Below, one piece after another: positions 38,213-55,739 of a DNA stretch of 64,000 nt (within the stretch, counting starts at the first letter, position 1; every line of letters begins with the position of its first letter). Made by a program: the position numbers and the translations under genes. Source of the stretch: Ignavibacteria bacterium (lineage in GTDB: Bacteria > Bacteroidota > Ignavibacteria > Ch128b); NCBI GenBank assembly GCA_013177855.1, contig JABLYA010000005.1, forward strand, positions 7,426-71,425. The letters run 5' to 3'. The notes below the pieces were generated by a model, which worked only from the letters and a program-made list of their open reading frames with translations, made no database searches and was not told the DNA's origin.

Positions 38213-39310
38213 ATGATTGATAAATTTAAAAATGAATATGATACATATATTTCTGATATAGAAGATTTCTTTGACCTACCAGAATATATTCAAGATAAAA
38301 TATTAAAAAATCCATATTTTGATTATGTAAAAGTCTGGGATAGATTAGATTCCGAACAAAAATTATACCTTCTTCAAAGTTTTAATATAAAATATGAAGA
38401 ATTATGGTCTAAATTAACAACAGTTGAAAAATATAGTGTAATACAATATGTTAATAATTTTGATTGGCGAAAATATACACCACAACCAAACGATGATGAA
38501 TTAAATATATTATTAGAAAGAGATGATTTTGATGTAGAAGAATTTTTTGATAGACTTTCTGAATTACAAAAATTAAGAGTATGTAGTAAAAAAGATTTTA
38601 AATATCAAAGTTTTTGGGATAAATTGACATATAGTATGAAAAGGGAGATAGTAAGACATAATATTATCTTTGATCCTGAGCCATATATAGAGGAATTAAA
38701 AATTAAAGATTTTAAAATAGAAGATGAAATTGAAACATTTTCTTTATTAGATGAATATTGTGAAAGAAAAGTCACAAATCCATTACATTATGAAAAGATT
38801 TGGAATCACCTAGATAAATTTCAAAAAATGAAAATTGCAATAAATAATGAACATTATATTGTTAATGATAAAGAAGAAATATTTCAATTATTTAAGTCTT
38901 ATCCAAATCAAATGATAGATTTTATAAAATACAAGATAATACCTCAACCAGATTTATTTAATAAAGGTGTTGAGGAAATTGAATTTGATAGGTTACCAAC
39001 AAATATAAAAGATTTAGCTCTTGATATTTTTAAAACATTTAATCTTATACACTACGAAGATATGGAAATGATAATTGAAGAAATGAAGCAAGGTAATATT
39101 GTAATAATAGCTGAAAAATATAAAAATTTACTTCCTTGTTGTATAGTTAAAGTTAAAGAATTTGAGAGCACCAATTGTGCCATACAGAAAATTAAACCAG
39201 GTTATTATTTTTGTGAAATAATACCAAGAAGATTTATACCTATAAAAGATTACAATTATGTATTAAGAGAATCAAAATTAGAAAGATTATTAAACAATTC
39301 AGATGATTAA
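38213..39310 (+). CDS. Hypothetical protein with internal W(D/S/N)(R/K/H)L...QK(L/M) repeats
   Basis: VWDRLDSEQKLYLL, LWSKLTTVEKYSV, FFDRLSELQKLRV, FWDKLTYSMKREI, IWNHLDKFQKMKI. Confidence 0.5.
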   Translation: MIDKFKNEYDTYISDIEDFFDLPEYIQDKILKNPYFDYVKVWDRLDSEQKLYLLQSFNIKYEELWSKLTTVEKYSVIQYVNNFDWRKYTPQPNDDELNILLERDDFDVEEFFDRLSELQKLRVCSKKDFKYQSFWDKLTYSMKREIVRHNIIFDPEPYIEELKIKDFKIEDEIETFSLLDEYCERKVTNPLHYEKIWNHLDKFQKMKIAINNEHYIVNDKEEIFQLFKSYPNQMIDFIKYKIIPQPDLFNKGVEEIEFDRLPTNIKDLALDIFKTFNLIHYEDMEMIIEEMKQGNIVIIAEKYKNLLPCCIVKVKEFESTNCAIQKIKPGYYFCEIIPRRFIPIKDYNYVLRESKLERLLNNSDD

Positions 39311-39595: not shown

Positions 39596-39790
39596 ATGCG
39601 ATACAAAGAAATTGAAAGAAAGTTTTTAATAGATCCAGAGAAAATACCATTTGAGATAAAAAAGTTACCATACCTTGATATAGTTCAAGGTTATGTAACA
39701 TCAATAGAGAAAGATTTAACATTCAGGTTAACTTACAATTAGCAATTAACGGATTGCCAGAAAAATAAAATAATTATACATGGAAGAAAA
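39596..39790 (+). pseudogene. CYTH-domain protein remnant
   Basis: MRYKEIERKFLIDPEK... carries the EXEXK CYTH signature. There is an in-frame TAG after ...TFRLTYN, and a later segment ..HIRTEKEREEITQEI lies in another frame. Confidence 0.5.
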
Positions 39791-40316
39791 ACACATTAGA
39801 ACAGAAAAAGAAAGAGAAGAAATAACACAAGAAATACTTAATTTTCCACCACCTGTAAAGACTCGTGGTTTTGAAGAAGTAGAAGAAAAACACAAAAAAA
39901 AAAATACAAAATGTAGAAACGATACTACCGACAAGAGGTAGTCAATTATCTGCTGGTTATGATTTCTATTCAAAAGAAGAAACAGTTATATTACCAGGAA
40001 ATAAACATATTTTTTGGACAGATGTTAAAGCATATATGATGAAAGATGAAGTTCTTGAAATATATGTTAGAAGTTCTATTGGTATTAAGAAAGGTTTAGT
40101 GTTAGCAAATGGTACTGGTATAATCGATTCTGATTATCATAACAATCCTGACAATGATGGTAATATTGGCATTTGTTTGAGAAATGAAAGTGATGAAGCA
40201 CAATCTATTATGGTTGGTGAAAGAATTGCTCAAGGTATTTCAAAAATTATTTAGTAGCCGACAATGTTTCAGAAACTCAAAAAAGAACTGGTGGTATAGG
40301 CTCAACCGATAAATAA
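39780..40316 (+). pseudogene. dut: Trimeric dUTPase disrupted by two homopolymer frameshifts
   Basis: KTRGFEEV...LPTRGSQLSAGYDFYS...VRSSIGIKKG...GIIDSDYHNNPDNDGNIGI...GERIAQGI(F)...RTGGIGSTDK. Frame changes occur at A11 (39894-39904) and in a T-run near 40238. The N-terminus is derived from the CYTH remnant. Confidence 0.7.
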
Positions 40317-40317
40317 A

Positions 40318-41290
40318 ATGGTGACAGGATTTACATATGCAGATGATTACGAATCACCTGAGGAAAAACTTAGAAAAAAAAACGTGAAAAGAAACGTAAA
40401 CTTCGTGAAAAGAAAATAAAAAGAATTTTTAAAAATGAGTAATTTTATAGTAAGTGGTATTAGTTACTATCAACCATTTTATCAACCTACACAAATGGGT
40501 GTAACATCATATACATTTGCTTGATCTGGTACTTCTTCTTTAGAATCAGAAGAAGAAAGAGTTGTTAGAGTTTGCAAAAAGAGAAGAGGGACTTGCGAAA
40601 CAAAAAATTAGAACGAATTTATGGACGAGAATCAAAAGAAAAAGGTTCAAGACAAGTGGAGTGTGATATTGGACAAACTTAATGTTGATGAAGATAAAAA
40701 GGAATGGCTATCAGAATATGCTGAAATGCATCAAGCTCAAATATTTCAAGATACAGGAACAACAAATTCATTTCCATCATTATTACCTATTGCTAAAAGA
40801 ATCGCAGCCGGAACCATTGCTTTGGGATTTGATTATGAATCTGATGAAAGAATACAGCGAAGAAAAAGAATTCTGAAACTTAAAAGAATTTTAAGTGATA
40901 GTGAATTTCAAGATGTTGTATCAAAAGAAGAATATGAAGATATAATAGTTGAAAAGAAAGATTGTCATAACCCTGGTTTAGTTTCTGTGCAACCATTATC
41001 AGCACCAATTGGTATGTTATTTTATATGGATTTTATATATGAAAGTCCAGAAGAAAAATTAAGGAAACAACGAAACGAAAAACTCAAACGAATATTAGGT
41101 AATGATTCAGAAAGTGGAATATCAGGAGAAAATGAAGAAGATTTACAATGATGTTTGTTTTCATTCTTCGTTGCAACACACTATTTTAGAAAGCACATAG
41201 AAACGTGGATTGGTTGGATTACAGATAACAGAAAAAAGTTAAAAAATTATTAGGTAAAGACACTGTGTAAAGTGTTTTTTTTTTCATTTT
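40318..41290 (+). other. Array of about 5 diverged mini-modules, each an MCP-like hydrophobic strand followed by (Y/L)ES, an acidic patch and a basic helix ending (L/I)(K/E)(R/K)(I/L)(L/F/Y)G
   Basis: VTGFTYADDYESPEEKLRKK(fs)REKKRKLREKKIKRIF; GVTSYTFA*SGTSSLESEEERVV..LAKQKLERIYG; TIALGFDYESDERIQRRKRILKLKRIL; GMLFYMDFIYESPEEKLRKQRNEKLKRILG; ..ITEKKLKKLLGKD. Several frame breaks occur, including A9 at 40374-40382. Confidence 0.55.
40621..41151 (+). CDS. Paralog of the major capsid protein N-terminal region (about the first 150 aa) with basic-helix insertions
   Basis: DKWSVILDKLNVDEDKKEWLSEYAEMHQ compares with MCP KKWAPVLDHLQVSDIEKRTWMAEYAEMHQ. SLLPIAKRIAAGTIALGF compares with NLLPVSMKIAAQTIGLDL. 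GLVSVQPLSAPIGMLFYMDFIY compares with DLVAVKPASSPRLELLFVDFKY. Confidence 0.65.
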   Translation: MDENQKKKVQDKWSVILDKLNVDEDKKEWLSEYAEMHQAQIFQDTGTTNSFPSLLPIAKRIAAGTIALGFDYESDERIQRRKRILKLKRILSDSEFQDVVSKEEYEDIIVEKKDCHNPGLVSVQPLSAPIGMLFYMDFIYESPEEKLRKQRNEKLKRILGNDSESGISGENEEDLQ

Positions 41291-42838: not shown

Positions 42839-42881
42839 TTAGTTAAAAAATTAATGAAGTACATTAAAAAATAGTAATTCT

Positions 42882-43679
42882 ATGGGTCTTATTAGGAAAC
42901 AATCATTATATCAGTTATTAATGATTCAAAATATGATGAATCAAGAAGTTGGAGACATCGGTGAAAAAACAACCAAGGACTATGAGAATCATTATGATAC
43001 TAAAAATGATACTGATATAACCGATGATGTTGCATATGATATGTCAAACAAAATACAATATTCTGGTAAAAACCCAGATTGGAATTATATAACAAGGTTT
43101 GGTCAAGGTAATTTTGGAGAATGTATTGGTGATTTAACAGACCAAAAATATGCAAATCATTATTGGACACAAAACCCATTAGATCAAGAAGTTCATAAAG
43201 AACTTGATACTTATGAAGATTTTGACCAAATGTTTAGTTTTGCTCCATCGTGGAGTAAAAGAGATAAGGATAAAGTACAGAAATTAGATTATCCTGACAA
43301 AGAACTATTTAAACCAGTAAAATATTTAAAACCTAAGAAAAATGAAAGTTATTCAATAATAAATGAAAGTAGAATATATAAATTCGATCAATTTGTTAAT
43401 GAGAATAAAGAATGGATACCAAAAATAGATGAAATATCAATTATACTAAATTATTTAAAGATTAATTACCCAATAAAAGAAAAAACATTACGTATTGATA
43501 AATCTAAATCAATTAAATACATTATGATAGATAATAAACCACAATATTTTGATGGATTTTTTGCAAATAAAACAAGAATAAGAAAAAAATTATATCAAAA
43601 AATCAAATATAAATTTGAAAATTTTCAATATTCATCAATAAATAAAGCTATTAAAATTTATATCAATGAAGAATTATAA
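42882..43679 (+). CDS. Hypothetical protein
   Basis: ORF only. Confidence 0.5.
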   Translation: MGLIRKQSLYQLLMIQNMMNQEVGDIGEKTTKDYENHYDTKNDTDITDDVAYDMSNKIQYSGKNPDWNYITRFGQGNFGECIGDLTDQKYANHYWTQNPLDQEVHKELDTYEDFDQMFSFAPSWSKRDKDKVQKLDYPDKELFKPVKYLKPKKNESYSIINESRIYKFDQFVNENKEWIPKIDEISIILNYLKINYPIKEKTLRIDKSKSIKYIMIDNKPQYFDGFFANKTRIRKKLYQKIKYKFENFQYSSINKAIKIYINEEL

Positions 43680-44285
43680 TAATTTCATAAAAGAGAATAA
43701 TGAAGATAATGAAATAAAGATAAGTTGAACTATCTTATTATGATTTTATTAATGTTTATAATGTTTATAAAGTAGTAGATTTTAAAGATGGTTACGGCAA
43801 CGATATATGTAAAATTGTAGAATTAGTTAAAGAAGATCCTGGTAAATGTAATTTCGCAAACAAATCAAATAAATATCACTTTCTTGCAGCAATTCAAAAT
43901 AAAACTTTAATAGGCGTTTTCTATAAACAACTAAGAGGTAATCCTGACTTATATGATGATGGTTATATTATCTCACAAGGCGCAGGTAAAGAATTGTTGA
44001 TGGGTATGAGAAAACTTGGAGCCTATACAACATTTTCAAAATTAAGTAACATACCAAGTTTAAAAACACAAATACAAATGGCTGCAGAGTTTATCTGCAT
44101 GACAGACTCATCACCAGAAAAACCTTCTGGTACATACAACAAAGAATCTTATTAGTGGTGATGAAAAATTCTTCCTTTTCGAGTTTTCAGAATTCTTAAC
44201 AAAGAATAAAAACATCATTGTTGCCGAACCAAAAGAAGGACTAGCAAGTAAAATTATATTTTATTTCGTTTTGGGGAAATTATAG
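43666..44285 (+). pseudogene. GNAT-like acetyltransferase with CTS-like leader, with two frameshifts
   Basis: MKNYNNFIKENNED..., then in another frame ..HFLAAIQNKTLIGVFYKQ...GYIISQGAGKELLMGMRKLG (GNAT motif A-like), then a third frame to TAG at 44283-44285. Confidence 0.45.
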
Positions 44286-44325: not shown

Positions 44326-44751
44326 ATGAAATATTTATATTTAATCTTATCGTTACTTCTATTTAATTTTTATAGTTATTCTCAGAATAGGACTATTTCT
44401 GAATCGACAAAAAAAATCGTTTATGCAAGAGATATTGTTTGCCAATGTTGTGGTAGTTCTGAAAGTTTGGAATATGATCATATTACACCATATTCTTGTG
44501 GTGATAGTAACGATGCTTCAAATATTCAGTTACTTTGTCAAAAGTGTAATAGAAGTAAATCAAACAGTTGCTATTGTAAAATACATAATAGGAAAGTAGG
44601 TACTAATTGTTGTGATGGCAGTTCAACTAAAACTAATAGTAGTTCTTCCACATTAAGACAATGTACTGGAACAACAAAAAAAGGAACCAGATGTAAAAAT
44701 AAGACAACTAATTCTAATGGTCGTTGTTATTTGCATTGTGTGAAAAAATAA
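44326..44751 (+). CDS. HNH endonuclease with N-terminal signal peptide and C-terminal Cys-rich motif
   Basis: MKYLYLILSLLLFNFYSYSQ; CQCCGSSESLEYDHITPYSCGDSNDASNIQLLCQKCNRSK; CTGTTKKGTRCKNKTTNSNGRCYLHC. Confidence 0.7.
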   Translation: MKYLYLILSLLLFNFYSYSQNRTISESTKKIVYARDIVCQCCGSSESLEYDHITPYSCGDSNDASNIQLLCQKCNRSKSNSCYCKIHNRKVGTNCCDGSSTKTNSSSSTLRQCTGTTKKGTRCKNKTTNSNGRCYLHCVKK

Positions 44752-45246: not shown

Positions 45247-45567
45247 ATGCAAAAAGAATCTTGGAATTATATAACAATGAATAATATCAACTGGAACATC
45301 AGTGATTTAAATTGGCAAATTAAAATATTACGCAAATATTATCCAATTGGCATGGAAGTAGAATTATGGGAAAATCCAAACTTAAATAATATTGATATTA
45401 ATAGAAGTCATAAATTTATAATAATAGAATATAAAAAAAGATCGCATTATACTTTAAATGTATATGATCCAATAGATACTTGTTGTTTGGAAATGCATCC
45501 AGGATTTTTCAGACCAACTAAAAGATATTTGAGAGATAAAAAATTAGAAAGAATATTACAAACTTAA
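45247..45567 (+). CDS. Hypothetical protein
   Basis: ORF only. Confidence 0.45.
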   Translation: MQKESWNYITMNNINWNISDLNWQIKILRKYYPIGMEVELWENPNLNNIDINRSHKFIIIEYKKRSHYTLNVYDPIDTCCLEMHPGFFRPTKRYLRDKKLERILQT

Positions 45568-45629: not shown

Positions 45630-47081
45630 ATGCTTGTAGACTTTGAATATAAGAATCATAATTTAATATGTTCATACATTGATAAATCTGGTCAAATAAA
45701 ACTTAAATATTATCCTTGGACTCCAACAAAATTTATACCTACATCACAAGATGATCCCGATAGGTCTGGAAAATATGTTACTTGGGATGGACGTCCAGTA
45801 AAAGAAATTTACACAAAACATCCTAATAAATATTCCATATATGATTTTCTTGACACATTACCAGAAGAAGAACAAAGTATGTTATTTGATTATCACGAAC
45901 CAAATATATACTTTATAGATATTGAAAATGAAATTCTTGATAAGAAACCTCAACCTCATTTGGCTGAAAGTAAAATTCTTTCAATTTCAATTATTTGCAA
46001 AAATAAAGCACTTGTCATTGGAATAGACCCATTATCACAAAAAGATCAAAAATCAATCCAAAACGATATTAATAATGAATACGGACGTATTTTTGATAGA
46101 GAATGGGAGTTTAAATATGTTCAGTATAAAAATGAATATGAATTATTGTTAAATTTCTTTAAAGTATTTGTACCTAAGATGCCTGTTATGACAGGTTGGA
46201 ATTTCAAACACTATGACTGGGTATTTTTAGTAAATAGAGCAAGAAAATTAGGTATTGATCCATCAATGTCTTCATATACTGGTCTTCTTTATGAAGAAAA
46301 TCAAAATGATCCAAAAAACTACTGTGAATTGCCAGCACATAGAATTATTATTGACTATATGGAAATATTTTCTAAGTGGGACACATCTATTAAAGTAAAA
46401 GAATCATTAGGATTGGATTTTGTTTCAGACAAAGTTCTTAAAGTAAAGAAAGTTAATTATGAAGGTAACCTTAAAATATTATATGAACAAGATTTCAAAA
46501 AGTTCGTGTATTATAATGCAGTTGACTCAATTCTTGTTCAATTAATACACGAAAAATCAAAACTTGCTGATATTCTTTATGGTATTGCAACATTAAGTAG
46601 AACAACTGTAACAAAAGCATTATCAACTCTTTCTATCACTGAAGGTATTTTGAGAAAGAAATTAAGAGAACAAAAGAATATAGTTTTGGTTAAGAATGAA
46701 GAAAGTGTAGGTGGTTCTGCTGTAATTGGTGGTTGGGTAAAAGAGCCAATCAGAGGTATGGCAACTTGGACTGCTTGTTTTGACTTTGCTTCACTATATC
46801 CAACAACAATGCGACAATTTAATATATCTGCGGACTCATATAAGGGTCAGAAAATAAATGAAAATTATGCTTTATTTAACGGTCAACAAATAGAATTAGA
46901 TCCAACTGACATTATTACAAAAAATGGTGCTGTATTTAAGAATGAAATTGGAGTAGTAACACAAGTTATGGGTGAAATTTATGCTGATAGAAAAAAATAT
47001 AAAAATATGATGATTCAAAAAGCACATGAATTAGATGAATTGAAAAGAGAATTAAAAGAATTAGAAGATAGTCTAATGTAA
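45630..47081 (+). CDS. gp43: Family-B DNA polymerase, N-terminal part only (exonuclease domain through motif A)
   Basis: ExoI is YFIDIENE, ExoII is TGWNFKHYDW, ExoIII is YYNAVDSILV and motif A is CFDFASLYPT. The ORF stops about 85 aa after motif A, without motif B (KxxxNSxYG) or motif C (YGDTDS). Confidence 0.8.
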   Translation: MLVDFEYKNHNLICSYIDKSGQIKLKYYPWTPTKFIPTSQDDPDRSGKYVTWDGRPVKEIYTKHPNKYSIYDFLDTLPEEEQSMLFDYHEPNIYFIDIENEILDKKPQPHLAESKILSISIICKNKALVIGIDPLSQKDQKSIQNDINNEYGRIFDREWEFKYVQYKNEYELLLNFFKVFVPKMPVMTGWNFKHYDWVFLVNRARKLGIDPSMSSYTGLLYEENQNDPKNYCELPAHRIIIDYMEIFSKWDTSIKVKESLGLDFVSDKVLKVKKVNYEGNLKILYEQDFKKFVYYNAVDSILVQLIHEKSKLADILYGIATLSRTTVTKALSTLSITEGILRKKLREQKNIVLVKNEESVGGSAVIGGWVKEPIRGMATWTACFDFASLYPTTMRQFNISADSYKGQKINENYALFNGQQIELDPTDIITKNGAVFKNEIGVVTQVMGEIYADRKKYKNMMIQKAHELDELKRELKELEDSLM

Positions 47082-47101: not shown

Positions 47102-47326
47102 ATGCAACAACCTCATAGAGTTTCAATGGAAATGATGAAGAATGCAACTGAAATCAAGTGTGAATCTTGTGGTCATGATACATTTGAAGAAGTTATTAAA
47201 TTAAGAAAAATATCAAAACTTATTACAGGAAGTTCAAAGGATACGTTAATACCAATGCCTATGTTTGCTTGTAAGAAATGTGGTAATATTAACAAAGAAT
47301 TTGATATTACAGATTTAACTTTATAA
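47102..47326 (+). CDS. Small zinc-ribbon protein
   Basis: CESCGH...CKKCGN. Confidence 0.5.
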   Translation: MQQPHRVSMEMMKNATEIKCESCGHDTFEEVIKLRKISKLITGSSKDTLIPMPMFACKKCGNINKEFDITDLTL

Positions 47327-47511: not shown

Positions 47512-49491
47512 TTATCTCTTGATATAATCGTATATTTTATTCTTTTCTAAAAATAATTTTCTTAATTTTTTAGTTTCTGTTTTATTTTTACCCAATATAT
47601 AAACATATTTATGTTTTTTTGATGTTTTCCTTACTAGACAATTATTTAATTCTCTTTTTGAATATTCTTTTAAAAAAGTTGATACCTCTTGTGGCATGTT
47701 CTCCCATAAAATTTTATATTTTTTACCCCAATTCTCCTTCCATTCTATGTTATTTAGTTTTGCTATTTTTTGCATATACTTGATTTTTGTATAATTTCTA
47801 TTATTAACCCAACCTATATCTGGATTATTTAAATTAAAATACAATTTATCACTACCAAATTTTTGACCCAAATAATAAAAATTACATGCTTGATAAATAG
47901 TACCAATTTCTTTTGCTTCTGTATCAGAATATGCTTCAAATATCCTGAAATTTGTATTTTTAACCATCCATCTTATTGACCACATTAACAATTTAGATGC
48001 TAAATTTTTTGGTGTCCAAGATGCGCAAGCACCTCTACTTATCAATTTTTCTATATCCTTTGTATCGTCACCTAAAAACTTTGAAAAAGAATTAGGTATA
48101 GACATAATTATAACACCACCTATTATTCCTTTATATGTTGCAATAAATCTATGAGTTGGTCTATTTGGCATTTTACCTAACCATTCATATTTTTTAATAA
48201 ATTTTGTTATTTCTTTTAATGTCACTTTATCATTATTATCAACATATTTTAATTCAAAATCATTAATATTTATATCATTAATATCTATGTTTTTTGTTTT
48301 CAAATATTCGATATCATCATTTAAGGTATTTAATCTTAAATCATATTGCCAACAATGATTCTTATTATAAATTTCATGTTTAATCAATTGATCAAAGACT
48401 GTATAATTTTTATCTATAATAAATATATAATTATACCCTTGTTCTCTACAAGCTTTTTCTTTAATGATGTTTTTTTCTAAATGTTCTTCATACCACTTTT
48501 TAGATTTTATTTCTATAATTAAATTTAATTTTTCATAATAAAAATCAGAATAATAATAATGTTCTATACCATTATACTCATATTTAATTGTAGGACCTCT
48601 TTTTATACTTATTATTGAATAATATTTATCTAAAAAATCTTTTTCATATGTTCCTTGATAATATAAATCTGAATTTTCGTATTTTTCTATTTTATAACCA
48701 TTTTTTATCATCTTTAAATAAAATTCTTCTAATTGCATAGGATAATAAACACCATATTTTTCATATATTATATTCATTAATTTTTGTTTAATAATTTCAT
48801 TTTTCATTGGATTTTCTACACCAAATCTTTCTACACAAGTATTTTTAAATTTTAACCTATTGTTATAATTTTCATAACCATATTTTTCTTTTTTGGTGTT
48901 TTTTATTTTATTTTTTATTTCATCAGATTGTAATACAAAATCACAACCATATTTTTTATTATTTGTCATTTTTAATTTTGATAAAATTATATCAGATTGT
49001 AAAGCATAATCAACTCCAAATTTATTGTTCATTGTTTCTAATGTTTTATTTTTAAATTCATCAGTTTGAATATAATAATCTTTACCATATTTTTTATTAT
49101 TGGTTTCCTTTTGCTTTTCTATATTTACAAAATTTTCATTACCATATCTTTTATTTTTTGTTTCTTTAGTTTTTAAAATATATTCGTCCGTTTTTGTATA
49201 TGAATCAACACCATATTTCTTAATACAAGTTTCTTTTTTCTTGTTATCGGAACATTTTTTACAAGTATAATAACCATAATTATTAATATTCCTTCTGTAA
49301 GAAAAAATGGAAATTTTTTGAGTTTTATTACAAATATCACAAGAAACTTCAATTATAGTTTTACTACTAAAAGGTAATTCATCAGGTATAATTTCTATAA
49401 TATCACCAGATTTTATTTCATAACCTAAATTTTTGTAATGTGTTATGTTTTTATTGGTTGTTTTTATTGTTAGTTTTTTAGTTAAAATCAT
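47512..49491 (-). CDS. Fusion protein: Zn-ribbon, KYG-repeat region, PD-(D/E)XK-like nuclease core, then a C-terminal GNAT-fold Mom-like domain
   Basis: Repeats K(K/R)YG(V/K)D.Y.QTDE x about 8. SDFYYEKLNLIIEIKSKKW gives a D..E.K pattern. C-terminal YEWLGKMP...GGVIIM...ISRGACASWTPKNLASKLL...FEAYSDTEAKEIGTIYQACNFYYLG. Confidence 0.45.
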   Translation of the reverse strand: MILTKKLTIKTTNKNITHYKNLGYEIKSGDIIEIIPDELPFSSKTIIEVSCDICNKTQKISIFSYRRNINNYGYYTCKKCSDNKKKETCIKKYGVDSYTKTDEYILKTKETKNKRYGNENFVNIEKQKETNNKKYGKDYYIQTDEFKNKTLETMNNKFGVDYALQSDIILSKLKMTNNKKYGCDFVLQSDEIKNKIKNTKKEKYGYENYNNRLKFKNTCVERFGVENPMKNEIIKQKLMNIIYEKYGVYYPMQLEEFYLKMIKNGYKIEKYENSDLYYQGTYEKDFLDKYYSIISIKRGPTIKYEYNGIEHYYYSDFYYEKLNLIIEIKSKKWYEEHLEKNIIKEKACREQGYNYIFIIDKNYTVFDQLIKHEIYNKNHCWQYDLRLNTLNDDIEYLKTKNIDINDININDFELKYVDNNDKVTLKEITKFIKKYEWLGKMPNRPTHRFIATYKGIIGGVIIMSIPNSFSKFLGDDTKDIEKLISRGACASWTPKNLASKLLMWSIRWMVKNTNFRIFEAYSDTEAKEIGTIYQACNFYYLGQKFGSDKLYFNLNNPDIGWVNNRNYTKIKYMQKIAKLNNIEWKENWGKKYKILWENMPQEVSTFLKEYSKRELNNCLVRKTSKKHKYVYILGKNKTETKKLRKLFLEKNKIYDYIKR

Positions 49492-49617: not shown

Positions 49618-51345
49618 TTAGATAAGAACACCATTGTTGTCTGTAACACGGATTTCCATAAATTGTTTCCAAGGGAAGAAACCAATGTCTGTGATAGCGT
49701 AACGGCTTCTGATAAGCATTCTTGGTGCCCAAGTTGCTTCGGAAATCAATGAAATTGATTGTGCCATTAAGTAAGGAATGAATACAAGACCTGGTTGATC
49801 AACTGAATTCTTTCTTCCTAAGAAGATTCTGTTATCATCCCATCTCATGTAAGGATCTACATAGATTGTGATGTTACCAATGTTACCCATTGGGTACAAC
49901 TGACCATTTGTATTCAATTTACCAACGTTAGTTGGAGCGATTGTGTATCCAGCAACATCTTGTAATACGGAAGCTAAGTTACCGTTTGTGATAAGATATT
50001 GAGCAGGACCTACTCTACCGTCAGTAGCAATAAAGTTAGAAGCGTTGTTGATTTTAGCAACAAGTTTTCTTTGGATTGAGTGGTAAGTTTCACCACCAGG
50101 TGCAGGACCAGCAACTGCTGTGTAATCATCAACGTTAAAGTCGAATTTAGAATTACCTGAAGCGTCTTTTGGAGTTGTGTGAGATGCTCTGTTTTCGCCT
50201 GCAAGAGTTCTAATCTTATCAACAATTTGTTTAGAAATTGTTTGAGTAAGTTCGTTAATAAGAACTGATTCAAGTTTTTGTACAATGTCCATACCAGTTG
50301 AAGCTTTAATATCTTCAATTTGTGTACGTTTTAATGCACTTGAAATTTCGATGTCACCTACTGCAACAGATTTGGTGAATACGTCTGGACCAATAACACC
50401 AGGATAAGTGTTTTCATCTTCAAGACGGCTCATAGCATGGTTAATGTACCAACCAGCTGAGAAACCAGGAAGGTGATCTTCCATTGTGCTTACTAACTCA
50501 ATAGTTGCACCAGTAATTTGAAGTAATGAACTACCACTTAAATGATAGAAATAAGCACCTTCTAATTGAGATACAACTGATGTAGCGTAACCGAATGTGT
50601 TTTTATTTTGGTCAAATCCCCAATTACCTGCAGCAGCGTTGTTGTTTTGTCTGTATGATCTAAACATAGGAAGACCATCAACTCTTGAAAAACCTAAAAA
50701 TTCTAAAACACCAAGTTTATTACCTGTTGGAGGAGTTGTTGTAGGTTCAAATACGTTAGTGAATGAACCACCAGTTAAAGTAACAAATACTCTTTTATCT
50801 AATCCACCAATAAGTTCTTTAGTTGTTAAAACACCAAGTGTATATGTTAATTGGTTTAAAAGAGTTGTTTTATCAGTAACATTTAACTTGAAAACAAGTG
50901 GTTGTTCATCACCATCTAAATTACCATGACCTTGTGGATTGTTATCGTATTTAAAATCTACGAATAACAATTCTAATCTTGGTGAAGAAGCTGGTTTTAC
51001 TGCAACAAGGTCAAGACCAATTGTTTGAGCAGCAATTTTCATTGATACTGGAAGTAAGTTTTGAGCTACATCACCTGAACCGATAGCACCTGTAGTTACA
51101 GGAGCACCTGTACCTGTGTAAGTGTTTGTGCCACCATAAAGACCAGCACCACCGATAACGGGAGCTTGAACATTACCCATACCATAAATGTTACCTAATG
51201 TGCTATAAGCAACATTTTCATTAAGCTGATGCATTTCAGCATATTCAGCCATCCAAGTTCTTTTTTCAATATCACTTACTTGTAAGTGGTCAAGAACAGG
51301 AGCCCATTTTTTCAAAGCTTTTGCTTTATCTACGATAAAATTCAT
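49618..51345 (-). CDS. gp23: Major capsid protein, T4 gp23-like
   Basis: The N-terminal propeptide-like region is followed by LLPVSMKIAAQTIGLDLVAVKPASSP, comparable with T4 MVRRAIPNLIAFDICGVQPMNSP. Gene order is portal-protease-scaffold-MCP. The start is set at MNFIVDK because the 11-mer lies inside the longer ORF extension. Confidence 0.85.
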   Translation of the reverse strand: MNFIVDKAKALKKWAPVLDHLQVSDIEKRTWMAEYAEMHQLNENVAYSTLGNIYGMGNVQAPVIGGAGLYGGTNTYTGTGAPVTTGAIGSGDVAQNLLPVSMKIAAQTIGLDLVAVKPASSPRLELLFVDFKYDNNPQGHGNLDGDEQPLVFKLNVTDKTTLLNQLTYTLGVLTTKELIGGLDKRVFVTLTGGSFTNVFEPTTTPPTGNKLGVLEFLGFSRVDGLPMFRSYRQNNNAAAGNWGFDQNKNTFGYATSVVSQLEGAYFYHLSGSSLLQITGATIELVSTMEDHLPGFSAGWYINHAMSRLEDENTYPGVIGPDVFTKSVAVGDIEISSALKRTQIEDIKASTGMDIVQKLESVLINELTQTISKQIVDKIRTLAGENRASHTTPKDASGNSKFDFNVDDYTAVAGPAPGGETYHSIQRKLVAKINNASNFIATDGRVGPAQYLITNGNLASVLQDVAGYTIAPTNVGKLNTNGQLYPMGNIGNITIYVDPYMRWDDNRIFLGRKNSVDQPGLVFIPYLMAQSISLISEATWAPRMLIRSRYAITDIGFFPWKQFMEIRVTDNNGVLI

Positions 51346-51451: not shown

Positions 51452-52648
51452 TTAATATCCTAAATTTTTAATTTTTGAGATGAATGCATCTATTTGTTCA
51501 TCTGATAGAGAAGTATTATCTACAACTCTGTTTTCGTTAAGAATCTGTTTACTTTCATTAATCTTAGTATAAGATTCTAGTCTTCTGCTCTCCCAGAATT
51601 TTTCCATTCTTGATGGAGTAGTTAAATCAGGGTAAAGTTTTGCAGAATTGATTATACTCTTTTTGTAATTTTCGTTCAACTTTTCCCATATAGGTTTTAA
51701 TTCTGAAGGCATATTTTCAATCAATACATCTTCAAATGTTTTTTGAACTGAAAGAGCATTTTTAATAGCATAAAGTACTTGATTTTCTGTGTAGATAGGT
51801 TCTTTACTTTCGTTTATTGTAAAGATAACTTTTTCTTTATCTTCACTTGTAAGTCCGTACCATGCTTTTTTGTTCTTTTCTGTTAGGAATTGAACAAAAT
51901 GTGGTTCTTGATTTTCAGAAGCTTTACGTTTTTTAGTTTCTGTAATTAAGTTACCAATGTATGATTTTAATGAATTTTCGGTTTCCATAATTCTATCACC
52001 AATAAGGTTAACTTTACTTTCATGTACTTCTACTAATTCATTATTGTCAGCCATTTTAACTACTAATATACCTGTTGAAGGATTTGAAGCAAGAATTTCA
52101 CCTGTTCTATCTTCAATAGATACTGTTGCACCAGGAACTAATTGTACTTGTGCACCAACTGGTTCGCCTTCAATTGAATCAGGCATTTCACTATCAATTT
52201 CATTTGGTTGTGATTGAACTTGATTTTTTGGTTGTGATTGAACTTGATTTTTTGGTTGTGATTGAATTTGATTTTTTGGTTGTGATTGAACTTGATCTTT
52301 TGGTTGTGATTGAACTTGATCTTTTGGTTGTGATTGAACCTGAACTTTTAGTTGTGCTTGAGTTTGTACAGGTTCATCATCAGTTTCATCTGGTTCTTGT
52401 ATTTGTGATTTTTGAATGAAATCATCGTCTTCATCATAATACTTGTCTATATCAGAAACTTGTCTCATGTTAGGAATTTGCATTTGATTTCCAGCTTCAA
52501 AAATTTTTGAACTTTTAATAGATTCAATTGTGTTGTCAAGACCTTCAGCAATATAATTCATATATGCCTGTGTATCTGAAACATTTTCAGCAATGTATTC
52601 TGAATAAGCAATGTTGTTATCAACATGCTCAGCAATGTATTCTGGCAT
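51452..52648 (-). CDS. gp22: Prohead scaffold protein (gp22-like by position and composition)
   Basis: Acidic, repeat-rich and lying between the protease and MCP. Starts at MPEYIAEHVDNN (ATG 52648) or at the upstream ATG 52696. Contains (V/I)QSQPK(D/N)Q x6. Confidence 0.55.
   Translation of the reverse strand: MPEYIAEHVDNNIAYSEYIAENVSDTQAYMNYIAEGLDNTIESIKSSKIFEAGNQMQIPNMRQVSDIDKYYDEDDDFIQKSQIQEPDETDDEPVQTQAQLKVQVQSQPKDQVQSQPKDQVQSQPKNQIQSQPKNQVQSQPKNQVQSQPNEIDSEMPDSIEGEPVGAQVQLVPGATVSIEDRTGEILASNPSTGILVVKMADNNELVEVHESKVNLIGDRIMETENSLKSYIGNLITETKKRKASENQEPHFVQFLTEKNKKAWYGLTSEDKEKVIFTINESKEPIYTENQVLYAIKNALSVQKTFEDVLIENMPSELKPIWEKLNENYKKSIINSAKLYPDLTTPSRMEKFWESRRLESYTKINESKQILNENRVVDNTSLSDEQIDAFISKIKNLGY
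52206..52349 (-). repeat. 24-bp coding tandem repeat x6
   Basis: ggttgtgattgaacttgatttttt units are read directly. Confidence 0.9.
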
Positions 52649-53070
52649 AAGCAATGTTGTTATCAACATGCTCAGCAATATATTCTGCATAAGCAATGTT
52701 GTTGTCTAAGTTCTCAGCAAGATATTCAGAATAAGCAATATTCTTATCGAGATTTTCAGCAAGATATTCAGAGTATGCTATATTGTTATCAAGATTTTCT
52801 GCAATATATTCACTATATGCAATATTTTTATCAAGATTTTCTGCAAGATATTCTGAATAATCAATAGATTTTTCAATATTTTCTGCTAAATAATCAGAAA
52901 ATTGAATATTTTTATTAACATGTTCTGCTATATATTCTGAAAAATCAATATTTTTATCTAATATTTCTGCAATATATTCAGAATAGTTAATGTTTTTATC
53001 AAGTTGTTCAGCAAGGTATTCTGAATACTTAATAGCTTTTTCCAAATTCTCAGCTAAATAATCATTATGC
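52530..53070 (-). repeat. 42-bp (14-aa) coding tandem repeat x about 13 that spans the protease/scaffold gene junction
   Basis: NIAYSEYLAENLDK-type units. One unit (52639-52648) has GG where all others have a single G. Confidence 0.85.
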
Positions 53071-53954
53071 TTAGTGAGTTTTTCGGTAATTTCTTTTATT
53101 GACTTGTTTTCATTTACAACAATTTGAATACTATCAGCCAAATAATCAAGATATTTAGCAACTTTGTTTTGTTGCTCTAATAAGGTTTCATAAGACTCAG
53201 ATAATTTTATAATTTGATCAGGTTCAACTTTTCCATTTTTTACACTTTCTGTAAGAAGATATTTTACTTTTTCTAATTCTTCTTTTAAATACTCTGAGTA
53301 TTCAACCATTTGTGCTTTTGTAACAAAATCATTTTGGTTCATGTTGAATAATTCATTAATTTTTGACTCATCAGATATGTCGTATATCCTAAAGTTAGTT
53401 TCTTTTGTTTTAAATCCTAAAGATTCGTTTAATGTCTTTACCTCCATTCTAGCTGAACCGAAACCTGGATCAGCAACAGCATCATAGGTAAATAATTTTT
53501 TAACAGTAACGGTTCCATCTGATTCAGTAATACCAGCAGCTCTACTTGAAACAAAAATAGGGCAACCATCTTCGACTAATGCTTTAGCCTCCTTGCCCCA
53601 ATGTGTGTTTAACAATCTAATTTCACCATCTACTCTATTCTTTTCTTTATTATAAAAAAGTTTTTCAATAGTATGTGAAATTCTTTGTAAACTTGTATCA
53701 AATACGTCTGGATGATCAAACTCACCATATACAGCACCTAATGTATTCTTACGTTCTATCAATTCATTAAGATGTGGTAAGAATTTTTCTGCAGTATAGA
53801 TTCTTTCATTACGATTCATAACATCAAATTCGGTGAAAATACCTGATAGTCGATATTCTTTATTACCTTTACTATCAATCTTTACACCTTCATTAAGTTT
53901 TAAACCATTTGTGTTATTCTCTACAATTAGAACATACTTGTTTGGTTTTACCAT
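52629..53954 (-). CDS. gp21: Prohead core protease (T4 gp21-like) with a C-terminal 14-aa repeat extension
   Basis: The N-terminal 175 aa (SGIFTEFDVMNRNERIY...GEFDHP...SHTIEKL...VSSRAAG...YDAVADPGF) fit the gp21/U9 protease family pattern. It lies directly downstream of the portal gene. Confidence 0.75.
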   Translation of the reverse strand: MVKPNKYVLIVENNTNGLKLNEGVKIDSKGNKEYRLSGIFTEFDVMNRNERIYTAEKFLPHLNELIERKNTLGAVYGEFDHPDVFDTSLQRISHTIEKLFYNKEKNRVDGEIRLLNTHWGKEAKALVEDGCPIFVSSRAAGITESDGTVTVKKLFTYDAVADPGFGSARMEVKTLNESLGFKTKETNFRIYDISDESKINELFNMNQNDFVTKAQMVEYSEYLKEELEKVKYLLTESVKNGKVEPDQIIKLSESYETLLEQQNKVAKYLDYLADSIQIVVNENKSIKEITEKLTKHNDYLAENLEKAIKYSEYLAEQLDKNINYSEYIAEILDKNIDFSEYIAEHVNKNIQFSDYLAENIEKSIDYSEYLAENLDKNIAYSEYIAENLDNNIAYSEYLAENLDKNIAYSEYLAENLDNNIAYAEYIAEHVDNNIAYARIHC

Positions 53955-54065: not shown

Positions 54066-55739
54066 TTAGAATGAAAATTGTGATTGTCCACCACTTTCTT
54101 GTCCACCACCTTGTGGAGGTGATTGTCCGCCTTGTGCACCCATTTGGGTACTACCTTGCATTCCACCTTGCATTCCACTAACACCTTCACTAGCATTAGC
54201 ACTACTATCAACAAGTTTATATTTCTTGTTTTCGGTAATATCAGCGTCAGTAAATTTCATAATTTTGCGAATAATCCATTCAACATGTAGATATGGTTTA
54301 CCCTCAGCATCTTGTAAATTTGAACTTAATGTAGAAGCAATTTCGGCTCTTTTTTGTAAGTTGTTTAAAAATTTCCATTCTTCAAATAATTCGTTTTTAT
54401 TAAATATAACTTGTATTGAAGCGTGAAATAGATTATCATCTTTCAATTCAGGAAAATCCATAATCATCTGAATCTTCAAAGGTTTAACGATTATTTCTTT
54501 GAAAATAGTTCTTAATCTCTTAATATAATTTTGGAATTTAATTTCATGTCTTGTCATTTCAGCAGTATCATTAAATAAATTTCCACCACCAGCATCGTCA
54601 TCAAATCTACTGAAAGGAAGTTTTGAAGCTCTTTTTAAGTTTTTGAAAAACCAAGTAAGCATTGAATCTTCATTCAAATCTGTGCCTTGTGCTGTGACTA
54701 TTTCTACTGTTGGAGTACCTAAATCAGAACTTGGGAACCAAAAATCTTTTGAGTGAGGAATATTGGTTGAACCATTTATTGATACAGTACCCATTGTATC
54801 ATCCCATTGTACATCTTCGTGATACTCTGACATCAATTCATATATTTGTTGTTCTGCTTGTTGTTTTGTTAAACCATTTGTAGGAATAATAAATTTTTTA
54901 TAAATTGCTGCTTGATTAATATTGTAAAGTAATCTTGTTTGTTCCAACATTTTTAATTGATTATAAGGTCTAATCAAATTTTCAACGTAAGATGTTTCTG
55001 CAAATTCATTATTATTAGTATACGATATATATATAATCTGAGCATCTAATAAAACTCTTCTAATTTGTGGATTATCAGGATATTGTATCCAAACTATTGT
55101 ACCAGAACCAGGATCAGTTGCAACAATAAGCGTCATGGGATCTATTGGTTGAAGGTCTATAATATTTTTTTGTTTGTTATCATAAACTATTTCATAAGCA
55201 ATATAACCATCAATTAAAAAATTTTTAAAATAATTCCAAGCTGTTATACCATCACTAAAACCAAAATTTCTATAAATTTTATTGAAATTTTCTTGCCATC
55301 TTTGTTTTATAGAATTATCAAACTCATCTGGTAAATCTTTTAATTTGCAAAAATAATTATCATCATTGTATATAATTGTTTCATCAGCAATTTGAGTAAT
55401 AAAATCTTTTATTTCATCTTTAATTGCATATTGTCTTAATATTTTTCTTTTATCAACATAGGCTCTATCAAGGTATGCTATAGATTTTCTATCAAGCATT
55501 TTTGATATAATTTTCTTAGAAAATATATCATACATATTGGTTGATAATGTTGTTTGTCCTTTTGGATCTTCATGTAAACCAATAGAGTACGTATTTTTAA
55601 TAATCATATTTTCATAATCCATACCCCAATTGGATAAATTTCTAAGCATTCTGTTGAACATACCACGATTTTCAATAGTATTGCCTAAGTTGTTCATTGT
55701 GTTTTGGTTATTGTTAGTATACCTATTATATGATGGCAT
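54066..55739 (-). CDS. gp20: Portal protein, T4 gp20-like
   Basis: 557 aa. ...HSKDFWFPSSDLGTPTVEIVTAQGTDLNEDSMLTWFFKNLKRASKLPFSRF resembles the gp20 core. It has a G/Q-rich C-terminal tail. The variant motif TTTATATATAC lies 21 nt upstream. Confidence 0.75.
   Translation of the reverse strand: MPSYNRYTNNNQNTMNNLGNTIENRGMFNRMLRNLSNWGMDYENMIIKNTYSIGLHEDPKGQTTLSTNMYDIFSKKIISKMLDRKSIAYLDRAYVDKRKILRQYAIKDEIKDFITQIADETIIYNDDNYFCKLKDLPDEFDNSIKQRWQENFNKIYRNFGFSDGITAWNYFKNFLIDGYIAYEIVYDNKQKNIIDLQPIDPMTLIVATDPGSGTIVWIQYPDNPQIRRVLLDAQIIYISYTNNNEFAETSYVENLIRPYNQLKMLEQTRLLYNINQAAIYKKFIIPTNGLTKQQAEQQIYELMSEYHEDVQWDDTMGTVSINGSTNIPHSKDFWFPSSDLGTPTVEIVTAQGTDLNEDSMLTWFFKNLKRASKLPFSRFDDDAGGGNLFNDTAEMTRHEIKFQNYIKRLRTIFKEIIVKPLKIQMIMDFPELKDDNLFHASIQVIFNKNELFEEWKFLNNLQKRAEIASTLSSNLQDAEGKPYLHVEWIIRKIMKFTDADITENKKYKLVDSSANASEGVSGMQGGMQGSTQMGAQGGQSPPQGGGQESGGQSQFSF

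Follow-up and report, generated by a model that had tools for sequence, protein, structure and literature searches.

A megaphage gene that copies the first quarter of the phage's own major capsid protein is one of a large family of small accessory proteins in phages

Why should a phage carry, among a run of small and partly broken reading frames, a short gene that reads like the beginning of its own capsid protein? The question was raised by an earlier note on a 64,000-nucleotide stretch of DNA (the window, here meaning the whole stretch analysed), in which one ORF was described as a copy of the N-terminus of the major capsid protein (MCP), surrounded by at least four shorter copies of one MCP strand, each followed by a highly basic helix. 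The first part of this description was borne out. The window is DNA of a megaphage (giant bacteriophage) and contains an intact mini-MCP gene (ORF176; Table 1) that copies the first quarter of the phage's own capsid protein. The only BLASTP match between the two proteins joined ORF176 aa 6-38 to MCP aa 7-40 (53% identity, E 4e-9). When a profile of the mini-MCP family was compared by hhalign with one built from the N-termini of four MCPs in this clade, the match reached 99.6% probability (E 3e-24, 96 columns, 40% identity). The aligned stretches, ORF176 aa 4-142 and MCP aa 5-137, fall into three blocks, namely the propeptide helices, LLPIAKRIAAGTI and VSVQPLSAPIGMLFYMDFIYES. The propeptide region is the most similar of these, and the homology ended after the first beta-hairpin at MCP residue 137. 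The sequence of ORF176 was identical and intact in the window and in three other independent assemblies.

Table 1. Features of the mini-MCP locus and of the related regions of the window
Feature	Position	Strand	Basis or remark
dUTPase gene, upstream neighbour	39780..40316	+	blastn to phage dUTPases
M1, small tail ORF, readable only with a -1 shift in A9	40318..40442	+	three-frame translation
A9 homopolymer interrupting M1	40374..40382	+	run length sample-dependent
M2, broken orthologue of the relatives' 76-80 aa tail gene	40435..40682	+	tblastn
ORF176, mini-MCP gene, intact	40621..41151	+	176 aa
ORF176 aa 4-38, propeptide (delta) helices, KW..ILD.L.V....K.WLSEYAEMHQ	40630..40734	+	BLASTP E 4e-9; hhalign block 1
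ORF176 aa 50-68, copy of MCP N-arm helix (FPSLLPIAKRIAAGTIAL vs QNLLPVSMKIAAQTIGL)	40768..40824	+	hhalign block 2
ORF176 aa 69-120, insert not in MCP	40825..40980	+	hhalign gap
ORF176 aa 121-142, copy of first MCP beta-hairpin (VSVQPLSAPIGMLFYMDFIYES vs VAVKPASSPRLELLFVDFKYDN)	40981..41046	+	strand HMM; hhalign block 3
ORF176 aa 143-163, C-terminal tail M4, SPEEKLRKQRNEKLKRILGND	41047..41109	+	full module HMM i-E 7.8e-21
Downstream 117-aa gene remnant	41102..41270	+	tblastn of L010 dn117
Weak hairpin, then T10 run	41256..41290	+	-8.4 kcal/mol, z -2.0
Separate 106-aa ORF ending ...RYLRDKKLERILQT and stop	45247..45567	+	tail-only HMM E 0.015; motif scan
MCP gene of the window	49618..51345	-	Pfam Gp23 E 5.9e-27; tblastn
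MCP part copied by ORF176 (MCP aa 5-137)	50935..51333	-	hhalign

Judged by these alignments, ORF176 shares ancestry with the N-terminal region of the MCP, which does not make it a member of the capsid proteins. The MCP of the window was matched at Gp23 profile positions 160-351, which ORF176 lacks. With the Pfam profile PF07068 (Gp23), ORF176 scored 19.1 bits (E 9.5e-4, aa 120-169 only) and did not reach the cut-off of 24.4 bits, which was passed by its relatives P0136 (28.0) and P0111 (25.1). A complete HK97-type body (P and A domains, ~450-600 aa) was not found in the 176 residues, and a gp24-type vertex protein was ruled out by the length and by the coverage of the N-terminus only. ORF176 is acidic (net charge -8, pI 5.0) and has MHQAQIFQ in place of the HQLNE↓N of the MCP, so that the propeptide cleavage motif is lost. 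Its AF2 model was poor (pLDDT 66.9, pTM 0.30); helices were predicted at aa 3-19 and 24-38, and the insert was the best-predicted part (helices, pLDDT 86-92). A Foldseek search of the PDB with this model gave no match, and a sequence profile search of the PDB returned chance matches only (E about 0.02). At the DNA level, the two genes shared a single 20-nt identity (encoding EYAEMHQ), for which codon bias accounts; in other stretches, identical residues were encoded by identical codons at just 2/8, 2/9 and 5/10 positions. Recent gene conversion with the MCP gene was thus rejected, the synonymous sites having diverged outside the EYAEMHQ stretch, and the suggestion of repeated recombination with the capsid gene found no support on the same ground.

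The intact ORF176 is one of many small accessory phage proteins that together make up a large family, so far undescribed. The family comprised 503 clusters (50% identity, E<=1e-3) of proteins of 100-190 aa; 133 of the 150 best-scoring clusters were no longer than 200 aa, and full-length MCPs aligned to positions 5-79 of the family profile only. On the evidence of these profiles, the family descends from the N-terminal ~135 residues of a T4-type MCP. It consists of the propeptide helices, the N-arm helix (P56, A63 and T65 of ORF176 are invariant) and the first beta-hairpin, with the glycine-rich loop trimmed and a mixed-charge helical tail added that ends in KL(K/E)RI(L/F). The ORF176 subfamily has in addition a helical insert of ~50 residues with a second copy of the tail. 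In ORF176 this internal copy, M3 (GFDYESDERIQRRKRILKLKRIL; i-E 0.089 with an HMM built from relatives), is followed by acidic helices, and the insert is kept in close homologues. The 13 homologues of ORF176 ranged from 96 to 235 aa, and simple forms of the family (103-125 aa) are without the insert. Pfam and PHROGs do not contain the family and gave weak major-head matches only, and a literature search found no account of truncated MCP paralogues in huge phages. The mini-MCPs of L006 and L010 differed with a dN/dS of 0.42, consistent with moderate purifying selection on ORF176. Of six complete genomes in the clade, four had no detectable mini-MCP gene, among them that of the 735-kb phage whose MCP is the closest; therefore, the mini-MCP is not a core assembly factor. 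Several members of the family (P0068, P0005 and L002) retained the (L/I)NE↓N site of the MCP. Lineage-specific states of the propeptide were seen in both proteins, a co-variation that was observed across three genomes only: GVTG occurs in the LR756502 MCP and in the LR756502 and LR745206 minis, the LR745206 MCP has GVVG, and the pair from the window reads V(S/D)(D/E)..K where those lineages have GVTG or GVVG.

The head module is 8.5 kb away from the mini-MCP gene and on the opposite strand. The gene forms part of a + strand unit at 36-47 kb, and its neighbours, in the window as in other lineages, are dUTPase and DNA polymerase genes. The order in relatives is dUTPase, zero to two small tail ORFs, mini-MCP and a 117-aa gene, which form an overlapping chain. 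The genes of the chain end with one mixed-charge helix (...ERIRKER..KLERIL), and the following start codon falls in, or shortly past, the tail helix of the preceding gene. The next ATG was found in, or one to two codons past, RI(L/F/Y) at the junctions of M1 with M2, of M2 with ORF176 and of ORF176 with the downstream gene, and at three more junctions in L016. The ATG of ORF176 lies inside the M2 tail KKLERIYG, and that of the downstream gene (41102) within the N-D codons of the M4 tail. Turnover of the locus was fast, with fusions, tandem copies and breaks, and modules were fused or permuted across lineages.

Within the window, the mini-MCP gene is the only intact gene of this chain, and comparison with relatives identifies the nearby small ORFs as damaged orthologues. 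The flanking modules are interrupted by a TGA and by frameshifts at two homopolymers, and about 60 codons have been lost. The positions that the earlier note gave for the A9 run and for the TGA (40522-40524) were confirmed. The corrected reading of M1, MVTGFTYADDYESPEEKLRKKKREKKRKLREKKIKRIFKNE and stop, overlaps the ATG of M2 with its final codons and was 49% identical (E 5e-4) to an intact ORF of 53 aa that occupies the corresponding place in L016. The run that interrupts M1 had nine A in the window, L004 and L005 and eight in L003, and neither length restored the frame; runs of at least nine were rare within long ORFs (2/15). M2 contains the in-frame TGA and a -1 frame change near 40556-40572: the 80-aa protein of L010 matched it through the TGA at 40435-40587 and in another frame at 40572-40673 (tblastn, E 4.5e-13), and both lesions were also present in L003, L004 and L005. 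The remnant of the 117-aa gene keeps its first 24 codons intact (dn117 aa 1-24 at 41102-41173, E 1.7e-8), about 60 codons are missing, and its C-terminal part lies in two other frames (aa 85-98 at 41176-41217, E 0.002). This C-terminal remnant is also what had been listed as a fifth MCP-type copy (41155-41270; tail E 2.8), which was not upheld. Relatives do hold intact genes at these places, as had been considered earlier; however, these are the upstream 76-80 aa gene and the downstream 117-aa gene (the latter in L006, L010, L009 and L016) rather than a gp24-type gene. The dUTPase gene, which is intact (177 aa) in L003, L006 and L010, was frameshifted twice at homopolymers in the window (A11 vs A7 at 39894, T3 vs T4 at 40238), and an upstream 183-aa gene showed plain lesions in the same stretch. 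A truncated upstream gene was considered as CYTH-like, and Pfam gave no match. Sequencing error was rejected as the source of all breaks, since three independent assemblies have in common the TGA, the frameshift in M2 and the ~60 missing codons of the downstream gene; variation between samples was limited to the A9 run and the dUTPase runs. The flanking modules of the window represent ordinary gene decay, and the broken ORFs probably yield no product, or a trace of product through slippage on the A run.

The feature that is repeated at the locus is the tail, composed of an acidic junction, a basic helix and (K/E)RI(L/F/Y). Its motif occurred 10 times in the six frames of the window compared to 1.8 times in shuffles, and four of the 10 occurrences lay at 40410-41126. 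With an HMM built from relatives only, the best six-frame matches after ORF176 and the MCP were the tail frames of M1 and M2 (E 0.05 each), and the tail HMM also recognized independent small ORFs of relatives (E 1.9e-10, 2e-9, 5e-5 and 3e-5), the matches at E 1.9e-10, 2e-9 and 3e-5 being to intact ORFs. The second-best tail-only match in the window was the separate 106-aa ORF, which may carry the same tail. The flanking modules had been described as MCP strand plus tail, and only the tail was recovered: an HMM of the strand alone found ORF176 aa 122-143 (E 5e-14) and the MCP (E 9e-4) and detected nothing elsewhere in the window. Likewise, "highly basic" overstates the helices, which are basic in their cores but have acidic flanks, and ORF176 as a whole is acidic. 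The x-E-S junctions had been likened to leader cleavage sites, a likeness that disappeared in the family alignment, where no (L/I)xE is conserved. The peptide YESPEEKLRK of M1 recurs at ORF176 aa 140-149, and 9 of the 30 nucleotides differ, all of them synonymously. That the 10 residues are identical in M1 and M4 despite nine synonymous differences (e.g., TCA vs AGT for serine) indicates selection at the peptide level, and this comparison points to a constraint on the protein rather than to recent copying of DNA.

A sigma-70 promoter scan around the locus was at chance level (32 found, 30 expected), and Rfam and tRNA scans were empty. The hairpin followed by T10 at the end of the locus contains too few G-C pairs to have been called in the terminator scan; it is possibly the end of the transcription unit. 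A genetic code with TGA or TAG reassigned was rejected: ORFs of at least 90 aa already cover 88% of the window under the standard code, little is gained by reassigning a stop codon, and large genes such as that of the MCP are intact without it.

What, then, could the mini-MCP do? Our best guess, to which we give a probability of roughly 30 to 35%, is a scaffold-binding accessory head protein. We make this guess by analogy, because the counterpart of the copied segment in T4 gp23 is reported to be turned towards the scaffold core within the prohead. The N-terminal part of gp23 has been suggested to lie inside the shell and probably to contact the scaffolding core, and this contact has been linked to head length (Fang et al.). 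On that basis, the mini-MCP would most likely bind the same partners as the capsid N-terminus, namely, the acidic scaffold or the protease core. It might be incorporated into the prohead, either as an accessory core protein or as an internal one, or it might tune the contact between capsid and scaffold; the shared tail would then serve as a common docking or oligomerization helix. The MCP segment copied by ORF176 aligned to gp23 4-139. Both the 414-aa scaffold-like protein (51452-52696) and the protease (52629-53954) are strongly acidic, with net charges of -25 and -29. An earlier proposal, that the modules are peptides of the scaffold core or internal peptides set free by the prohead protease, agrees with the T4 topology in its first half; its second half, release by the protease, is unsupported because the junctions have no cleavage consensus and ORF176 is without LNE↓N. 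Some observations run counter to a scaffold role. The gene lies far from the head module, on the opposite strand and among replication genes; it is accessory, and its product has no propeptide cleavage motif. The acidic ORF176 also fits an acidic scaffold poorly, except through the basic cores of its helices.

The same segment could instead be a capsid mimic in a conflict with the host, blunting a Lit-like or CapRel-like sensor of capsid protein or binding EF-Tu. Part of it aligns to gp23 at about 93-131, close to where the earlier note had placed it, which we take to cover the Gol region; this position is reasonable, but the alignment there is weak (domain i-E 22). The 29-residue Gol region binds EF-Tu, about 100 residues of the first quarter of gp23 bind it more stably, and the EF-Tu-binding region is the most conserved part of gp23 (PMC3014915). 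A Gol-type trigger is defined by its binding to domains II/III of EF-Tu and by its activation of Lit. The mimic gains a little from the accessory nature of the gene and from its location amid replication rather than head genes, and the fast turnover of the locus is of a kind typical of conflict genes. However, the part best conserved between the mini-MCP and the MCP is the propeptide, which is dispensable for Gol-type recognition, no defense gene or sensor is linked to the locus, and a Gol-like peptide made early would set off, rather than prevent, a Lit-type response, except where it bound without activating. We therefore regard a mimic as unlikely, and still less likely its fuller form, in which the protein would be expressed with the replication genes before the head genes, would neutralize sensors or capture EF-Tu and would share with its neighbors a tail marking co-acting effectors. 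A similarly low likelihood is assigned to the idea that the tail acts at the nucleic acid level, as a device for translational coupling or as recombination sites for cassettes, so that the peptides matter little. The A/U-rich tail codons and the position of the next ATG at every junction suit such a device, as do the changing number and order of the small ORFs, the short DNA repeats that join the tails (D1, 79% over 28 nt; D5, 89% over 18 nt) and the weak constraint on the upstream small ORF (dN/dS 0.68). Yet M3 has no start codon behind it, and its KLKRIL is nearly invariant in close homologues; the M1/M4 peptide identity, maintained through synonymous change, argues in the same direction.

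The broken modules might also still be expressed by recoding (slippage on A9 in M1, read-through plus a frameshift in M2) and thereby give functional peptides. The heptamer A AAA AAA, of the type X XXY YYZ, is a classical slippery site, and polymerase slippage is also known to occur on runs of nine A. The context AGA AAA AAA AAC in M1 holds this heptamer in the zero frame, and a -1 shift there yields the conserved tail. Indeed, the frames past each break still encode the tail, the M2 breaks are common to four samples, and L017, from another lineage, likewise has a frameshift between hairpin and tail. On the other side, the run is A8 or A9 depending on the sample, neither being in frame, no stimulatory fold was found 3′ of A9 (z -0.38), and the site is not conserved, as the L016 orthologue is in frame without a long run. 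M2 would require two independent recoding events, the dUTPase, 183-aa and 117-aa genes are plainly damaged in the same stretch, and the window fits the standard code. We consider recoding doubtful, to about the same degree as the nucleic acid device. Finally, the whole locus, including ORF176, could be nonfunctional debris of a capsid gene duplication. For the flanking modules, the earlier reading as debris stands, and damage to the neighboring genes agrees with it; for ORF176 it is very improbable, given an intact frame whose family numbers at least 500 clusters, similar in length, synteny kept across lineages, the dN/dS of the gene and the lack of recent DNA identity with the MCP gene.

To our knowledge, the small proteins of megaphages are almost entirely uncharacterized. 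The mini-MCP family (>500 clusters) retains only the N-terminal quarter of a capsid protein, the part that in T4 includes the peptide recognized by a host abortive-infection system. If the mini-MCP binds the scaffold, it would offer a handle on the sizing and nucleation of very large capsids; if it binds a host factor, it would represent a new anti-defense principle, and if a decoy, the first capsid-protein decoy. In both cases, the presence of one tail on neighboring small genes that are unrelated points to a common signal for addressing or docking in megaphages.

Among known systems, the N-terminal region of T4 gp23 is the closest, with its KW..(L/I)L propeptide helix, LLP..K.A..TI helix and V.P..(S/G)P.G.(L/I)F hairpin. 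ORF176 differs in that it ends after this hairpin, adds two elements absent from the MCP, the insert and the charged tail, and is a separate gene on the other strand; it would be unable to form capsomers because it has no P, A or insertion domains. The T4 vertex protein gp24 is likewise a second capsid-derived gene within one genome, but it is a complete HK97-fold builder of pentons, whereas ORF176 holds an N-terminal quarter only. All capsid gene paralogues that we know of are full-length shell proteins. T4-type hyperplastic regions contain small ORFs in changing number and order together with mobile regulatory cassettes (PeSL), and they resemble the mini-MCP locus in their variable runs of small ORFs with a short repeat at each gene boundary. 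The repeat of the mini-MCP locus, in contrast, is a coding tail that overlaps the next start codon, and no promoter or stem-loop cassette was found there. The internal proteins of T-even phages (IPI-III, from the polymorphic ip loci) are products of hypervariable small accessory genes with a common capsid targeting sequence. This signal is N-terminal, has 10 residues and is cut at (L/I)xE, whereas the peptide of the mini-MCP locus is C-terminal, helical and about 20-25 residues long; ORF176 showed no similarity to the T4 capsid targeting sequence and has neither an N-terminal targeting peptide nor an (L/I)xE site. Both groups suggest a route into the prohead by way of the scaffold core, putative for the mini-MCP, and both combine different protein bodies with one short conserved peptide in genes that lie away from the head gene cluster.

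BLASTP matched ORF176, the 176-aa mini-MCP gene product, to the major capsid protein (MCP) of the window over a limited stretch (aa 6-38 versus 7-40, 53% identity, E = 4e-9). The claim of an earlier note that ORF176 reproduces the MCP N-terminal segment was confirmed by a profile-profile comparison of 14 mini-MCP family members with four MCP N termini (99.6% probability, E = 3e-24, 96 aligned columns, 40% identity). Residues 4-142 of ORF176 corresponded to MCP residues 5-137 in three blocks, namely, the propeptide helices, a helix (FPSLLPIAKRIAAGTI in ORF176 versus QNLLPVSMKIAAQTI in the MCP), and a hairpin (VSVQPLSAPIGMLFYMDFIYES versus VAVKPASSPRLELLFVDFKYDN). The glycine-rich loop of the MCP (aa 45-92) is shortened in ORF176, and a 52-residue insert (aa 69-120) separates its helix from its hairpin. 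ORF176 scored below the Pfam Gp23 threshold; two other family members scored above it. Synonymous sites of the two genes have diverged except in one 20-nt stretch encoding EYAEMHQ, where codon bias can explain the identity. The similarity has therefore been kept by selection at the protein level rather than by recent recombination between the genes. The propeptide, in which mini-MCP and MCP resemble each other most, shows states that are lineage specific in both proteins: GVTG occurs in both proteins of phage LR756502 and in the LR745206 mini (the MCP of LR745206 has GVVG), whereas the pair in the window has V(S/D)(D/E)..K. FPSLLPIAK is a derived state common to the minis, and we argue from such shared states for one origin followed by coevolution with the MCP. 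The (L/I)NE|N site of the MCP is kept in several family members; ORF176 has lost this cleavage motif.

ORF176 represents a widespread, undescribed family of truncated capsid-protein paralogues with a shared tail module. A word-indexed search returned 13 homologues of 96 to 235 aa (30 to 58% identity), and tblastn added copies from the genomes LR756502 and LR745206, where the MCP gene lies about 90 kb away. An exhaustive profile search covering 1.84 billion representatives yielded 503 clusters at E ≤ 1e-3, of which 162 reached E ≤ 1e-10. Among the best 150 clusters, 133 were of at most 200 aa, and most matched end to end; full-length MCPs (557 to 596 aa) first appeared near E = 1e-12 and matched profile positions 5-79 only. 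Family members comprise a simple form (103 to 125 aa; propeptide, helix, hairpin, and tail, without the insert), an insert form like ORF176, and permuted or fused forms. No corresponding family was found in PHROGs and no description in the literature. ORF176 was identical in three further assemblies from separate sequencing runs, and a rough single-pair Nei-Gojobori estimate from two diverged relatives gave a dN/dS of 0.42 versus 0.27 for the dUTPase. We put the probability that the family exists, is homologous to the MCP N terminus, and is flanked here by decayed genes at about 0.9.

On its minus strand, the window (25.4% G+C) carries a T4-type head module. The MCP shares 63% identity with its counterpart in LR756501, a 735-kb uncultured phage, and 49 to 53% with those of three other phages (634 to 642 kb); Lak phages are more distant MCP relatives. 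These identities show the source of the window to be a megaphage of this clade. ORFs of at least 90 aa covered 88% of the window under the standard genetic code, which fits, as reading through TAG or TGA gained little coverage.

Features of the window, with matches and observations
Feature	Position	Strand	Match	Observation
365-aa gene	38213-39310			extra ~100 nt versus L003 (same phage) at 38950-39050
dUTPase	39780-40316			frameshifts at A11 (39894-39904; A7 elsewhere) and T3 (40238; T4 in two samples)
M1 (5' tail module)	40318-40442		-1-corrected reading 49% identical to 53-aa ORF of L016, E 5e-4	frame broken by A9
M2 (5' tail module)	40435-40682		80-aa gene of L010, tblastn through TGA then other frame, E 4.5e-13	in-frame TGA, -1 frame change
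ORF176	40621-41151	+		intact
Downstream region	41102-41270		relatives' 117-aa gene, residues 1-24 (E 1.7e-8) and 85-98 (E 0.002) kept	~60 codons gone, rest out of frame
265-aa gene	42882-43679			region 42849-43811 present in L004, absent from L003 (same phage): presence/absence polymorphism
HNH endonuclease	44326-44751			in replication strand; probably mobile nuclease gene
Small ORF	45247-45567		tail HMM, E 0.015	ends RDKKLERILQT, then stop
Family B DNA polymerase	45630-47081			N-terminal half only (exonuclease domain, polymerase-domain start)
Zinc-ribbon small ORF	47102-47326			after polymerase half
659-aa DUF7487 + Mom-family gene	47512-49491			opposite strand to polymerase half
MCP	49618-51345	-	Pfam Gp23, E 6e-27	
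Scaffold-like protein	51452-52696	-		strongly acidic (net charge -25), repeat-rich; tandem QVQSQPK(D/N) repeats
Prohead protease	52629-53954	-	Peptidase_S77	
Portal	54066-55739	-	Pfam Portal_T4, E 2e-67	
TnsA-like endonuclease	56514-57035			inside head module; probably mobile nuclease gene

Taken as a whole, the observation in the earlier note was confirmed in part, and its interpretation gained partial support. The positions claimed for the A9 run (40374-40382) and for the TGA (40522-40524) proved correct, and the suggestion that the locus is debris held for the flanks, where relatives have intact orthologues and the window has lesions, but failed for the intact and conserved ORF176. In the close relatives L006 and L010, a dUTPase gene (177 aa) is followed by a 76- to 80-aa gene, the mini-MCP, and a 117- to 118-aa gene, successive genes overlapping; neither contains a counterpart of M1. 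In L016, dUTPase and mini-MCP are separated by two small ORFs of 47 and 53 aa, both intact; L017 and the homologue P0015 have a small module fused to the mini-MCP N terminus, and L009 has none. Both the lesions of M2 and the deletion in the downstream gene recurred in every assembly spanning them. About 346 nt of an upstream 183-aa gene (L003 1601-2152) is missing from the window (junction at ~39731). The dUTPase frameshifts reflect either strain-level pseudogenization or run-length errors in assembly; the gene is intact in L003 and L005, both from the same phage. The number of lesions in 38.9 to 41.3 kb is unusual.

Tandem copies and frame breaks recur in the family: L015 1-126 is the end of a second mini-MCP copy just 5' of P0014, and tail and hairpin lie in different frames in L017 (851-972). 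In LR756502, the ORF directly 3' of the mini-MCP (L001 4483-4680; no Pfam match) begins MRFVSPGVYTKEVDISG, which resembles a tail-sheath N terminus, and later has a tail-like RRGKICRLLG; this ORF may be a second structural-protein mini copy. L015 has a C-terminal polymerase half directly 3' of the mini-MCP, and the polymerase appears to be a split gene. In L009 (1180-2982), a 292-aa endonuclease-like ORF interrupts the dUTPase gene, whose downstream piece has a weak intein-splicing match.

The flanking modules had been described as a capsid strand plus a tail with a highly basic helix; the tail was recovered, whereas the strand was not, and the helices proved to be of mixed charge (ORF176 has a net charge of -8 and a pI of 5.0). 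An HMM built from relatives only and run against the six-frame window scored ORF176 at 7.8e-21 and the MCP hairpin at 2.8e-5, followed by the tail frames of M1 (0.05) and M2 (0.053) and by M3, the internal tail copy of ORF176 (0.089). A strand-only HMM found no match in the six frames beyond ORF176 and the MCP; therefore, the flanking modules have the tail in common, not the capsid strand. A loose tail motif occurred 10 times in six frames versus 1.8 times in shuffles, with four occurrences at 40410-41126 and one at 45538. The tail HMM also matched independent small ORFs of relatives (1.9e-10, 2e-9, 5e-5, and 3e-5) and the C termini of 105- to 118-aa downstream genes (0.005 to 0.03 in three lineages and 0.088 in the fourth, L006). 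YESPEEKLRK of M1 equals ORF176 aa 140-149, with nine synonymous differences, including TCA versus AGT for serine. The 365-aa gene ends RESKLERLLNNSDD, a tail match that is not significant in the window; its orthologues in L006 and L009 end likewise (E = 0.06 to 0.2). The tail may mark further genes on the strand of ORF176.

At every junction, the next start codon lay in RI(L/F/Y) or 1 to 2 codons 3' of it. In the window, these junctions are M1-M2, M2-ORF176, and ORF176-downstream gene; in L016, all three junctions follow the same pattern. This suggests translational coupling, which may be why tail DNA persists at gene ends. That the tail is mainly a coupling or cassette device is nevertheless unlikely: coupling is not sufficient, because M3 has no start codon 3' of it and yet is nearly invariant among close homologues and because M1 and M4 (the C-terminal tail of ORF176) show peptide-level selection. 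Expression of the broken flanking ORFs by recoding is similarly improbable. A small amount of M1 product could still arise by slippage on the A run. One sample has A8 here and the others A9, in frame in none, and no fold was found 3' of the run. Homopolymers of at least 9 nt are strongly depleted from long ORFs of this genome (2 of 15 runs, with long ORFs making up 77% of the sequence). On the plainest reading, the genes around an intact mini-MCP have decayed; debris throughout, ORF176 included, is very hard to credit.

Fang et al. tie the probable N-terminal contact of gp23 with the scaffold core to head length and describe that region after expansion as the N-arm and N-fist. Over this region, the MCP of the window aligned, weakly, to gp23 residues 4-139, and ORF176 would thus represent the scaffold-facing module of the MCP as a stand-alone protein. 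Three observations given above fit this view: the closeness of the mini-MCP and MCP propeptides with their lineage-specific states, the derived states common to the minis, and the (L/I)NE|N site kept in several family members. This makes an accessory, core-docking protein our best guess. The mini-MCP would dock on the acidic core of scaffold or protease (net charges of -25 and -29, respectively), either becoming part of the prohead or modulating the contact between capsid and scaffold. We regard this mechanism as tentative because the gene was not detected in four of the six complete genomes of the clade, its neighbors are dUTPase or DNA polymerase genes rather than head genes, ORF176 lacks a cleavage motif, and its AF2 model was poor, with no structural neighbors found. 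Somewhat more doubtful still is a mini-MCP that serves as a capsid-mimic decoy or captures EF-Tu; the accessory nature of the gene and the fast turnover of the locus would suit such a role, but the tests run lent it no direct support. We regard the ORF176 family as related in kind to known capsid-gene paralogues and accessory head proteins.
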